A DNA stretch of 36,014 nucleotides from Parcubacteria group bacterium Gr01-1014_2 (GCA_007376425.1 VMGG01000002.1:1-36014), one strand, 5' to 3'. Shown: positions 18,634-36,014, numbered from the stretch's first letter. Notes: generated by a model not told the origin, from the sequence alone. Numbers and translations are program-made.

Positions 18634-18924
18634 ATGAAAATAAAATTAGAAAAATTCGGCACAACCCTAATATCCCGTGAATTAGGCAGCGAGGCGTTCA
18701 AGGCGTTTCAGCCCACATTATTTGAACTGCCGCCAAATGAAGAATTGGAAATTGATTTTTCGGGTGTATTAACACTGTCATCTTCATGGGCGGATGAATT
18801 TTTAAGCCCTCTCCTTGAACGGTTAGGCGAGCGGTTAGTATTATTGTCCAGCGATAATCTTTCGGTGCAAGCGACCCTAAAGATTCTACAAGAGGCGAAT
18901 AAGAGGCCTTTCAAATTTAGATGA
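18634..18924 (+). CDS. STAS-like protein (DUF4325 type)
   Basis: LISRELG, IDFSGVLTLSSSWADEFL; follows an HATPase gene. Confidence 0.85.
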   Translation: MKIKLEKFGTTLISRELGSEAFKAFQPTLFELPPNEELEIDFSGVLTLSSSWADEFLSPLLERLGERLVLLSSDNLSVQATLKILQEANKRPFKFR

Positions 18925-19124
18925 AAAATGACACAAAAACTAAAATCAAAAAAGAAGTTTACTGGCGGTGCAAAAAATGCGGGGATGAGATTTACTGGAA
19001 TACTCACAAGAAAATGATTATGTGCAAATGCGGAGCCCTCGGAGTCGACGGGTGCGAATTTTATGTGCGGCTTATCGGCAACGAAGCCGATCGGGAAGAA
19101 ATTAAGAAAGAAAGAGAAACATGA
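18921..19124 (+). CDS. Small Zn-ribbon protein
   Basis: CKKCGD...CKCGALGVDG; ATGA overlap with the STAS gene. Confidence 0.7.
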   Translation: MKNDTKTKIKKEVYWRCKKCGDEIYWNTHKKMIMCKCGALGVDGCEFYVRLIGNEADREEIKKERET

Positions 19125-19304
19125 AAATAAAAGATTTATTTGCCCTGAGCCATGTCGAAGGGCCAAAAATAAAATCAATACGCCACCCGCTTGGCGTATT
19201 GCGTAGAAATGGGGTTTAATAGAGGGTATGCAGAGGCGTCTGGAAAATCGGCGTAAAATAGAATATAAGGAGTTTTATTGTGTAAAATCTGATATAGTGT
19301 AATC

Positions 19305-19563
19305 GGAGTAGTGAGAGTTGGTGTTTTTCGGTCTTCGGACTGAAAACAAGGTTGTGCAATAAGTCCGCCATCCGCCTTTGTGCGGTGGATTTGCCCGAAT
19401 AGGGCAGAAGGTGCGGTGAAAAGTAACAGCGGCTTAGCCTACTCCGCCGAAGCAGCTTCGGCTGCGAAGGCCAGGCGGGTGCACCAAGAGTTCAGCCGAG
19501 CATAATTGGAGCAAAATTGAGGGCTGAAAAGCGAAAAAGGATTTTCCTCTCGCTTGCTACTCC
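19305..19563 (+). ncRNA. Candidate ~260-nt structured ncRNA, family not recognised
   Basis: Extended -10 TGATATAGT 19290-19298; 11-bp closing stem GGAGTAGTGAG/CTTGCTACTCC; cUUCGg hairpin; several nested stems; terminator follows. Confidence 0.65.
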
Positions 19564-19570
19564 CGCAAAG

Positions 19571-19593
19571 AACTCCCAACACGGGAGTTTTTT
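19571..19593 (+). terminator. Intrinsic terminator
   Basis: AACTCCC-AACAC-GGGAGTT followed by TTTT. Confidence 0.75.
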
Positions 19594-19856
19594 GTTTCCA
19601 AACAATAATGAGTAGTGCGGTGGAGTAAAGTTAGTCCAGGGTCATTCTGGGGGTATGGCTCGTACTATCCTCCCTTGGCCATTACGGCTCACGATAATGC
19701 GCTCATAGCGAGGCTTCGGCAGTTTTATCGTAAAATGAAGGGGGACTTGTCCTGAGGAATTCGAAGGTATTAGTGTAGTTGCGTTCTGACCATCCCGACT
19801 GATAGAGGCATAATAGTATGTTATGGTATATTAAAAATACCCAGTAGATAAATTAT

Positions 19857-20660
19857 ATGGAGAATTTATTAAATAAAATCGAAAGGGTTCCTAAGGACAA
19901 AAAACTGATTGTTTTTGATTTGGATGGGACTCTTGTTGAAACTAAATCAAGCCTAGATGATGAAACGGCAGAATTGTTCGGGCAGCTTTTAGCACAAAAG
20001 AAGGTGGCTGTGATCGGCGGGGCAAGTTTTGAACGGTTCAGAAAAGATTTAGTTGATAGATTAAATGTCTCGCCGGAATTACTTGGCAACCTGTTTTTGT
20101 TTCCCACAACGGCCTCTTCTTTTTATAGATACGACAATAAGTGGATACAGGTATATTCAGAGGAATTTTCAAAAGAGCAAAAAGAAAAAATTATGGATGC
20201 CTTTGAAAAAGCGTTTAAAGAAATCGATTACGTGAGGCCTGAGAAAACTTACGGAGAAATCATAGAAGATAGAGGTTCACAAATTACTTTCTCGGCCTTG
20301 GGTCAAGACGTTGTTGCCGAACTCGGCGAAGAGGGGATTAAACTTAAGAAAAAATGGCGGGATGAAAACCAAGGTTTAAAACTTAAACTGGCTGGAATTT
20401 TGCAAAGGTATCTTCCCGAGTTTGAAGTCAGGGCTGCTGGCTATACTTCAATCGACATAACTCGCAAGGGGATTGATAAAGAATACGCGATTAGGCAAAT
20501 CCAGAAGCACCTTGGCGTTTCAATTGAAGATATGCTCTTTGTCGGTGATGCTCTTTTTGAGAGAGGCAATGACAATGCGGTATTAAGAACTGGAATAATG
20601 TGTTTTGAAATTAAAGAAGTGGAAGACACTAAAGAACTTATCAGATATCTTGTTAAGTAG
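19857..20660 (+). CDS. HAD-IIB hydrolase (phosphomannomutase-like)
   Basis: FDLDGTL, IEDRGSQITFSALGQ, GIDK, FVGDALFERGND. Confidence 0.9.
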   Translation: MENLLNKIERVPKDKKLIVFDLDGTLVETKSSLDDETAELFGQLLAQKKVAVIGGASFERFRKDLVDRLNVSPELLGNLFLFPTTASSFYRYDNKWIQVYSEEFSKEQKEKIMDAFEKAFKEIDYVRPEKTYGEIIEDRGSQITFSALGQDVVAELGEEGIKLKKKWRDENQGLKLKLAGILQRYLPEFEVRAAGYTSIDITRKGIDKEYAIRQIQKHLGVSIEDMLFVGDALFERGNDNAVLRTGIMCFEIKEVEDTKELIRYLVK

Positions 20661-20710: not shown

Positions 20711-21222
20711 AAAAATAAAAAAGAGCAGATTTTTCATAAGTTAGATTCGGCAACCAGTAAGCTACTCGAAGTAATAGAATTTTTAGTCGGTCTTAATTAC
20801 ATAGCTTTTTCAAAAAAAGCCTAGGAACAAAGTTAAATATGGATCCTTATTGGGAAGGGCAAAGATTATTTGGTGCTTTAGGCAATCTCGAAAAGGGGAG
20901 CTTTATTAAAAAAGTCGGAAGCGGTAGCTACAAGCTTACTAAAAAGGGGATTAAAAGAATAAATTTTTCTAAATTTTTTAGACTCTCTTTAGATAAAAAG
21001 GAAAAAGACGGTTTATGGCGGGTAGTGATTTTTGATATACCGGAAAAGCAGAAAGTTAAAAGAGATTTATTAAGACAAAAGTTAAAAGAGCTTGATTTTA
21101 AAATGATTCAGAAAAGTGTTTTCGTATCTCCGTATATTTGTGAAAAAGAAATCTTGGAGCTTTGTAAGATCTTGGGTTTAAAGAAAGAAGTTTCTATTTT
21201 GACTACTAAAACTATTAATTAA
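20687..21222 (+). CDS. PaaX-like protein (wHTH plus Cas2-like ferredoxin domain), split by a -1 frameshift at an A7 run
   Basis: YKLTKKG wing; DGLWRVVIFDIPEK...LKELDFKMIQKSVFVSPY; upstream frame open from ATG 20687 to TAG 20822-20824, joining at 20812-20818 to give ~178 aa. Confidence 0.75.
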
Positions 21223-24126: not shown

Positions 24127-24210
24127 TGCGCCCGGCAGGGGTTGAACCTGCACGACCTTGCGGTCATACGGCCCTGAACCGTACATGTCTGCCAATTCCA
24201 TCACGGGCGC
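24127..24210 (-). tRNA. tRNA-Leu(CAG)
   Basis: GCGCCCG/CGGGCGC acceptor stem, TACGG-TTCAGGG-CCGTA anticodon arm, long variable arm, GGTTCAA; CCA not directly encoded. Confidence 0.95.
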
Positions 24211-35928: not shown

Positions 35929-36014
35929 GGAAGGGTGCGAGAGTGGTTTAATCGAACGGCTTGGAAAGCCGTGCCCGTTTTACGGGCTCGTGGGTTCAAA
36001 TCCCACCCCTTCCG
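35929..36014 (+). tRNA. tRNA-Ser(GGA)
   Basis: GGAAGGG/CCCTTCC acceptor stem, ACGGC-TTGGAAA-GCCGT, long variable arm, GGTTCAAATCC. Confidence 0.95.

Follow-up and report, generated by a model that had tools for sequence, protein, structure and literature searches.

A stretch of 36,014 nucleotides from Parcubacteria group bacterium Gr01-1014_2 (GCA_007376425.1, VMGG01000002.1:1-36014), which at its full length is called the window in the following, carries on its plus strand a gene for a structured non-coding RNA (ncRNA) at 19305-19593. The gene and its fold are real, and we regard this part as secure. The RNA is a new family without recognisable relatives; it is not a demonstrated new mechanism. 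With moderate confidence we interpret 19305-19593 as an independently transcribed gene for a stable structured ncRNA of a family outside Rfam 15, the product of which would serve as a trans-acting accessory RNA. A first-pass annotation, generated from the sequence of the window, had placed a novel or highly diverged ncRNA in a gap of about 730 nt free of open reading frames (ORFs). The gap was confirmed: it measures 732 nt between two Pfam-supported ORFs and contains nothing beyond mechanical ORFs of 32-51 aa. The assignment as novel is borne out as well by the lack of any matching Rfam 15 family, with or without an insert that interrupts the present copy. The source genome, G000 in the following, comprises 545 kb in 37 contigs (completeness 90%, contamination 7%).

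Folding of the plus strand of 19300-19600 gives -121.7 kcal/mol (z -6.12), a value that none of 100 shuffled sequences equalled; the minus strand of the same region reaches z -3.54. The homolog search that the first-pass annotation had called for yielded relatives, and their alignment shows compensated pairs. The covariation alignment consists of 37 rows obtained with a covariance model (CM), including three weak rows of about 19 bits that were kept. In this alignment 96.8% of the cells are paired and 20 of 37 pairs are changed on both sides, values that favour the supported helices since the alignment was fitted to them, the contested region discussed below being left unfitted. None of 500 shuffles reached any of five measures, and pairing falls to 40-47% when the partner strand is slid by one to three columns. 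Five of the helices had already been predicted and were found in place: the 11-bp terminal stem (P1), which covaries at its position 4 (counted separately, n = 54: AU 21, GC 25, GU 6, AC 2), TTGGTGT/GCACCAA (P2), the cUUCGg hairpin (P3), TTGCCC/GGGCAG (hairpin B) and TTCAGCC/GGCTGAA in the 3' part; all five hold in the comparison (Table 1). Two further helices, GUUGU/GUAAC (H4) and CCGCC with GG(U)GCGG, are supported by the comparison beyond that annotation. The UUCG loop of P3 occurs in this copy only, and the loop of hairpin B reads GAAUA here and GAAA in most homologs. Hairpin A is near-invariant in sequence: none of its seven pairs is changed on both sides, four never vary, and over the 27-28 rows in which it is present 98.5% of the cells are paired.

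The overall order is P1, P2, P3, then H4 and CCGCC/GG(U)GCGG enclosing hairpin A and the GNRA-type hairpin B, followed by the 3' part, in which up to two optional hairpin modules precede the 3' strand of P1, an A-rich linker and the terminator. This architecture is modular. With P1 taken as the start and the U-run as the end, the copies fall into three length groups of 181-187, 208-250 and 256-288 nt. The 3' strand of P2 leads straight into the 3' strand of P1 in the shortest forms, from which module 1 is missing; in many homologs this module is present as a hairpin with the conserved elements GAGCAU...GGAGCA...UGAGG on stems such as UCAGCC/GGCUGA, UCGGCC/GGCCGA and UGUGCC/GGCACA. Module 2 has a long version in other genomes, in which the stem covaries and bears the conserved loop GCGACGAAAUC, and in which GAACGAAG/CUUCAAGUAG form an internal loop. 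Hairpins A and B are missing in some copies (the short forms), and in the copies of G034 and G042 everything inside P2 is cut down to a short hairpin. Common to all forms are only P1, a GAGAG junction, the base of P2, the A-rich linker and the terminator.

Both ends of the gene are marked by predicted transcription signals. The extended -10 box and the clean terminator (ACTCCC/GGGAGT followed by a T-run) claimed in the first-pass annotation are present where they had been seen, and both are conserved: among 11 homologs nine have a TGNTAT sequence and all have a box of the TATNNT type located 7-9 nt 5' of the closing stem, and a hairpin with a U-run follows 3' of P1 in 54 of the 67 loci that could be parsed by a regular expression. 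A simple consensus scan listed neither this promoter nor this plus-strand terminator; the latter may have been left out because the terminator stem of the minimum free energy structure runs into the U-run. The calls of promoter and terminator are thus predictions, made by reading the sequence and from its conservation in homologs. A look-up of RNA runs found none that contains the stretch. Copies of relatives were found on contigs of up to 5 kb from two runs labelled as RNA-Seq, which share a few words with it and were flagged as probably DNA.

The present copy is interrupted by a 39-nt repeat that landed at a tolerant junction of the RNA gene, between the GGCUUA strand and the 3' strand of P2. 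A tolerated insert resembling repetitive extragenic palindromes had been suspected at this place, and the suspicion held. The insert is missing from every homolog. The element of about 40 nt (here 19434-19476) has four more copies of 95-98% identity in the same genome, which amounts to at least five, and it is also found in the relatives G004, G005, G006, G007, G009, G016, G050 and G056. In metagenome data it is skipped exactly, as a contig of run X1 (depth 36) and one X20 contig join 19436 straight to 19476.

The region around the CCGCC strand required a separate assessment. The helix with a bulged U described in the first-pass annotation, which resembles P4 of RNase P, stood in part: its sequences are present and its outer four pairs are possible, but the inner half covaries with GG(U)GCGG instead, and the helix would cross H4, in which all five pairs covary. 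Aligned as UAAGUCCGC/GCGGCUUA, the P4-like helix pairs in 86.3% of the cells with compensatory changes as singletons only; seven of its eight pairs are mostly kept and the last is broken in 22 of 34 cells. Pairing of CCGCC with GG(U)GCGG, which lies upstream of the GGCUUA side, is at least as good (94.5% vs 86.3%). In short forms without hairpins A and B this helix is compensated as CGGC/GCCG and CCGU/ACGG, with the partner on the GGCUUA side remaining constant. The outer four P4-like pairs, UAAG (19360-19363) with CUUA (19433-19436), possibly form a pseudoknot across H4. In copies of the L050/L056 type the 5' strand lacks one A and the partner is CUA, which keeps three of these pairs; an uncompensated A-C is seen in five sequences. 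An extension of the bulged-U helix by AGGTT/AGCCT had to be abandoned, as its AGCCT strand is located at and within the insert and no homolog has it. The same applies to the proposed GTGCA/TGCAC pseudoknot, which was rejected: it is 77% paired with zero compensatory pairs, does no better than 454 of 500 shuffles, and its columns are already used by H4 and P2.

Table 1 Features of the RNA gene and of the gap in which it lies; positions are those of the window unless a contig (C) is given.
Feature	Position	Strand	Remarks
RNA gene	19305-19593	+	289 nt here, ~250 nt minus the insert; from fold z, homologs and covariation
Extended -10 box TGATATAGT (predicted)	19290-19298	+	~7 nt 5' of the first base of the closing stem
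P1, closing stem, 11 bp	19305-19315 with 19553-19563	+	covaries
P2, TTGGTGT/GCACCAA	19318-19324 with 19481-19487	+	7 pairs, 3/7 changed on both sides; 97.3% of cells paired
P3, hairpin C(UUCG)G	19325-19346	+	7/7 pairs changed on both sides
H4, GUUGU/GUAAC (family GUUGY/RCAAY)	19351-19355 with 19423-19427	+	from RNAalifold; 5/5 pairs changed on both sides
Segment UAAGUCCGCC	19360-19369	+	CCGCC and possible UAAG pseudoknot strand
Bulged-U helix of the first-pass annotation, TAAGTCCGC/GCGGCTTA	19360-19368 with 19429-19436	+	sequences present
CCGCC/GG(U)GCGG helix	19365-19369 with 19410-19416	+	94.5% of cells paired
Hairpin A, 7 bp, loop UUUGUGC	19370-19390	+	near-invariant sequence
Hairpin B, TTGCCC/GGGCAG	19391-19396 with 19402-19407	+	3/6 pairs changed on both sides
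Palindromic repeat element, 39 nt	19437-19475	+	inside the RNA gene
Further copies of the repeat in G000	C18:1232-1274; C10:16909-16951; C30:15023-15062; C29:12309-12348		
Optional 3' module 1, stem TTCAGCC/GGCTGAA	19491-19529; stem 19491-19497 with 19523-19529	+	
Optional 3' module 2, hairpin	19530-19552	+	short version here
Intrinsic terminator ACUCCC-AACAC-GGGAGU + 6 U (predicted)	19572-19593	+	read from sequence and fold
DUF7695 ORF	18921-19124		5' border of the gap
HAD-family hydrolase	19857-20660		same strand as the RNA gene, 3' border of the gap

Known RNA families were searched at several thresholds. At the gathering score, Rfam 15 reports for the window only pieces of ribosomal RNA (rRNA), a 5S rRNA and a tRNA, and nothing at the locus. 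At E ≤10 the region 19100-19900 gives four chance-level matches, the best with 17.2 bits against a gathering score of 224.5, and two insert-free homologs give zero matches; the comparison with Rfam in the presence and absence of the insert, as the earlier annotation had suggested it, thus ended without a matching family. Transfer-messenger RNA (tmRNA) was ruled out, as ARAGORN calls only tRNA-Leu (24127-24210) and tRNA-Ser (35929-36014) in the window and neither a tRNA nor a tmRNA at the locus. LOOT (RF03000, 121 positions) was likewise ruled out: its best match in the genome scores 11.7 bits on contig C33 and not at the locus, and it is not among the Rfam matches at E ≤10 for the locus or for the insert-free homologs. 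No description of the present RNA was found in the available parts of the literature on ncRNAs of Patescibacteria or the Candidate Phyla Radiation (CPR), on CPR RNase P RNA and on LOOT.

The family is rare and patchy, yet its core is near-identical across records titled as many CPR lineages. The genomes of relatives and the public records used here overlap and are not independent. A BLAST search in 60 relatives recovered the RNA in four genomes, with the match in G025 being 80% identical over query positions 12-311; all other matches covered the repeat of the insert or the 3' end only. A covariance model (R1), built on the 5' two-thirds with the well-supported helices only and the contested region unpaired, detected the RNA in 11 of the 105 genomes searched within the order (5 of 74 among those of high quality) and, in a sample of 150 others from across the phylum, in one; the same model gave no match in G001, a genome of the same genus with a completeness of 99%. 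For a wider view, 185,579 species genomes (596 Gb) were scanned with an 18-letter motif and loci were taken from among the matches listed, which outside the CPR are largely chance. Eighty loci among the matches listed were compared with the covariance model: 37 have a CM match (34 at 34-183 bits, three at about 19 bits) and 43 have none. By our estimate most 18-mer matches outside the CPR are due to chance, since an 18-mer is too short for a collection of 596 Gb. Among the matches listed, the records of the strong ones include such titled Saccharibacteria, Liptonbacteria, Staskawiczbacteria, Jorgensenbacteria, Sungbacteria, Paceibacterota and Doudnabacteria, and further Andersenbacteria, Kaiserbacteria, Collierbacteria, Berkelbacteria, Levybacteria, Yanofskybacteria and Komeilibacteria. 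With a 21-letter motif 66 loci were obtained, almost all of them from records with a CPR title. The titles of six name Gammaproteobacteria, Thioploca or Thermodesulfovibrionia or give no taxon, and two Gammaproteobacteria-titled ones among them were confirmed by the CM. Two genomes have two copies of the RNA each.

The genomic context was surveyed within 6 kb of 67 loci by crude ORF calling and BLAST clustering. No protein partner is conserved in more than 10 of these loci. HsdS-like proteins reach 10 loci, a Met-rich membrane protein with a SHOCT tail 8, an N6 methylase 7, an HTH-Panacea antitoxin 6, GIY-YIG proteins 5 and an N6_N4 methylase 4. A protein of about 250 aa that by our reading has a SWIM-like CxC...CxH motif, and that has no Pfam match, is present at 7 loci and lies directly upstream of the RNA at 6 of them. 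Among the immediate neighbours, 23 of 125 have domains that we class with genetic conflict or mobile elements, comprising TOTE primase-helicase, ResIII, NYN, Fic, Panacea, RVT, recombinases and methylase S. Many copies are located on short contigs or close to contig ends.

What the RNA does can at present be put forward only as a proposal. Our best guess, and the function we deem most likely, is that of an accessory RNA of genetic-conflict or mobile elements, acting as decoy, scaffold or ribozyme. A unit of promoter, RNA and terminator would move horizontally within the flexible gene pool of CPR bacteria. The RNA would act in trans and offer its core, which is invariant and in part unpaired, to a partner encoded away from it; this partner could be a macromolecule of the host or of a phage, or the RNA might itself be the catalyst. 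Horizontal movement and action in trans are suggested by the rare and patchy distribution, the near-invariant core and the lack of fixed neighbours, and the extreme conservation, taken with the patchy spread amid conflict genes, speaks for a transferable RNA function that needs no protein gene of its own.

Several observations weigh against this proposal. Transcription, start and ends of the RNA are deduced from the predicted promoter and terminator. The prevalence given above is a lower bound, as strict filters were used on the large sets and R1 is weighted to the variable core. The association with conflict genes is loose, since 54 of the 125 immediate neighbours are without a Pfam family and many others are housekeeping genes (EF-P, Mur ligase, D-Ala-D-Ala ligase, YceG, MgsA); the counts are raw ones. 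No recombinase recurs within 6 kb of the 67 loci and no vehicle of mobility was found. Flanking direct repeats are seen at only 2-3 of about 53 loci. Genes for tRNAs lie within 1 kb of 8 of 60 loci, roughly the number estimated for chance. Finally, of the 68 loci on viral contigs obtained in two motif scans only one (L166) is a true copy.

Some of these observations also settled candidate origins that had been considered. A phage origin was rejected on the single true copy among the 68 motif-selected viral loci; a scan with a 16-mer matched 55 viral contigs, none of which is a copy. Linkage to tRNA genes was rejected at a frequency near chance. Direct repeats or att sites were pursued through a motif of about 25-40 nt, AATAGTGAGTAGCG.GGT.GGGT, which stands on both sides of the gene at those 2-3 loci and occurs twice in the source genome; it yielded no integration model. 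The following individual loci are worth recording. In L236 (Levybacteria-titled) and L276 (Saccharibacteria-titled) tRNA-Phe and tRNA-Arg(tct) genes follow the RNA on the same strand within about 100-130 nt, and in L243 a tRNA-Arg(tct) gene lies about 100 nt downstream. An orphan 3' end of the RNA, consisting of the 3' strand of P1, the linker and the terminator together with the motif CAAACAATAGTGAGTAGCGGGGTGGGGT, occurs on the minus strand of L034 at 906-985 (G007:C1), directly after a protein gene and with the body of the RNA missing. The motif CAAACAATAGTGAGTAGCGGGGTGGGGT is also located 3' of the terminator in G000, G005 and G025, and 5' of the promoter in G005. In a recurring cassette the RNA is combined with the SWIM-like protein of 250 aa and with a Met/His-rich, SHOCT-tailed membrane protein. 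The loci are L275, L295, L296, L239, L242 and L255, at about 800 nt upstream of the RNA, and L040 of G074; the record titles name Magasanikiibacteriota, Giovannonibacteria, Yanofskybacteria and others. Judged by eye its proteins closely resemble each other, which suggests a recent transfer.

Other explanations were weighed against an accessory RNA acting in trans. The sequence could be read as a paralog of RNase P RNA, or a derivative of it, that is drastically reduced, has retained a P1-P2-P3-P4 core and would act on tRNA or tRNA-like substrates. The succession of P1, P2, P3, an A-rich strand with AAGUCCGC, ACAG-CGGCUUA and the 3' strands of P2 and P1 does echo the core of RNase P, its motifs resemble the Rfam consensus strings GAGGAAAGUCCGG, GGGUGAAA and ACAGAACCCGGCUUA, and the P4-like pairs are kept to the extent given above. 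We nevertheless consider such a derivative very unlikely, and the cell's RNase P RNA is another molecule: a full-length one of class A lies on a different contig at G000:C2:16-410, minus strand (91.9 bits, E 2.6e-29, model positions 1-367) with the expected GGAGGAAAGUCCG and AACAGAAUUCGGCUUACAG strands, and rnpA is present as well. A score just below the Rfam cut-off of 100 agrees with the report by Lui et al. (2021, PMC8172020) that RNase P RNAs of CPR bacteria have diverged and are found only at lowered thresholds. The class A and B models, applied to the whole genome at E ≤10, report this true gene at 91.9 and 29.2 bits and are silent at the locus, and no member of the RNase P clan matches the locus (E ≤10) or two insert-free homologs. 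Local alignment of the present RNA to the genome's RNase P RNA scores 22, whereas shuffles average 18.1 and 27 of 300 do equally well, and for the G025 copy 162 of 300 shuffles are as good, which is the level of shuffled sequence. The CCG of the short forms changes along with GG(U)GCGG and not with GGCUUA, and the P4-like helix would cross the covarying H4; P15 and the helices of the S domain are missing, and the RNA is found in few genomes of the order. RNase P identity was therefore ruled out, and the first-pass annotation, which had noted the resemblance and judged context and topology unfit, was correct in this point. Comparably improbable is a horizontally mobile RNase P-like or tRNA-docking RNA, in which AAGUCCG/GGGUGCGGUGAAAAG/CGGCUUA would be remnants or convergent copies of the core and elbow-binding region and which might act as ribozyme or decoy on tRNAs or tRNA-like RNAs in conflicts between CPR bacteria, phages and mobile elements. 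Even less probable is a strongly diverged housekeeping RNA, either the RNA of the signal recognition particle (SRP) or 6S RNA, that escapes the Rfam models. These two RNAs are indeed unaccounted for: the models for small SRP (RF00169), large SRP (RF01854) and 6S RNA (RF00013) match nothing in G000 at E ≤10, and RF00169 and RF00013 match nothing at E ≤1 in the relatives G001, G005, G025, G026 and G040 (87-100% complete, two of them 99-100%), so that the SRP RNA of the order may be too diverged for the models. A housekeeping RNA is at odds with the occurrence in 11 of 105 and 1 of 150 genomes, with the negative search of the same-genus genome (99% complete) and with two copies in some genomes. 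SRP RNA was ruled out by the lack of a model match, the rarity and the lack of an internal module common to all forms, and hence of a universal element resembling helix 8; 6S RNA was ruled out by the lack of a model match and by the multi-branched fold, which is not a rod with a central bubble.

The remaining two explanations concern the genes around the RNA. A cis-acting leader with riboswitch-like control of the downstream gene, here the HAD hydrolase, would be compatible with the position upstream of the next gene on the same strand and with a terminator at the end, as in many riboswitches. It is hardly credible to us, given that the family of the downstream gene differs from locus to locus, that this gene is often on the opposite strand, and that a spacer of 260 nt with a separate promoter-like site lies between the terminator and the HAD start. 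P1 is closed ahead of the terminator and no competing anti-terminator is evident, and the spacer has relatives of its own in genomes where the RNA was not found. More weight, although we still regard it as doubtful, can be given to a two-part mobile or defence system in which the protein is encoded elsewhere or varies; the RNA would be, for example, a guide, template or bridge RNA that works with a nuclease, reverse transcriptase or recombinase provided in trans. The patchy occurrence across lineages, the multiple copies in two genomes, the many copies on short contigs or contig ends, the SWIM-like protein that immediately precedes the RNA in 6 of 67 loci and the TOTE primase-helicase that does so in 2 would suit such a system. 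Opposed to it are the lack of any protein family in more than 10 of 67 loci, a reverse transcriptase fragment that is adjacent in one locus only, and an RNA in which no variable unpaired guide-like stretch was seen and both ends are conserved and paired. Judged by what characterises omega RNAs, bridge RNAs and retrons, the present RNA shows no adjacent cognate protein, no variable segment and no HEARO-type Rfam match.

In the source genome the RNA gene is part of a small accessory block that comprises an HTH_17/MerR protein with a mad1-like N-terminus, DUF4325, DUF7695, the RNA, HAD and an orphan Cas2-like PaaX_M protein, and that is bordered by ychF-rpsF-ssb on one side and by the gene for a class I (Trp/Tyr-type) tRNA synthetase on the other. 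The orphan protein (20839-21222, 127 aa) has a Cas2-like PaaX_M domain; the window shows no CRISPR array and no other cas gene. The spacer downstream of the RNA folds weakly at 19642-19807 (z +1.66), and this part has relatives of 73-82% identity in G005, G006, G007 and G012, at places where no copy of the RNA is nearby. On its minus strand a frame of about 35 codons is open and similar at the protein level in G006, G012 and G007; here it is without an ATG, GTG or TTG start. A 26-nt block at about 19773-19798 is 92% identical in G016 and overlaps a promoter-like site. At the beginning of the window the 23S rRNA gene (1-1514) is interrupted: matches to large subunit rRNA stop at 109 and resume at 1363, and the insertion of 1.25 kb carries an ORF for a LAGLIDADG homing endonuclease at 158-703. 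A 5S rRNA gene follows at 1585-1702.

Much of bacterial diversity is accounted for by the CPR, and to our knowledge the non-coding RNAs of these bacteria are almost unexplored. The present RNA adds to them a modular family of about 180-290 nt with strong covariation and a core that is near-invariant across many CPR-titled lineages, and with nothing comparable in Rfam 15. Should a function as ribozyme, decoy or scaffold be found, the RNA would represent a new kind of RNA player in the accessory genome of these symbiotic bacteria.

Among known systems, LOOT RNA shares with the present RNA the status of a stand-alone orphan structured RNA, but the present RNA is longer and has another helix plan. 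The RNAs raiA, OLE, ROOL, GOLLD and HEARO are known for complex multi-helix folds with highly conserved unpaired nucleotides, and some of them are linked to mobile elements; we know of no established function for them. None of the five gave an Rfam match at the locus or in the insert-free homologs. The present RNA is smaller than OLE, ROOL and GOLLD, and it is without the linked ORF that HEARO has. A likeness also exists to RNase P RNA. Both have a closing stem that joins the 5' and 3' ends and is followed by P2 and a P3 hairpin, and both have an A-rich strand ending in AAGUCCG and later ACAG..CGGCUUA directly before the 3' strand of P2, with a possible bulged U. The present RNA differs in having GYAAUAAG where RNase P has GAGGAAAG, in having just two small hairpins between the P4-like strands and neither P15/L15 nor S-domain helices, and in the inner P4-like pairs, which have another, covarying partner and belong to a helix that would cross H4. 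RNase P is near-universal whereas the present gene is rare, and as a practical caution the motif pair AAGUCCG/CGGCUUA can mislead towards RNase P.

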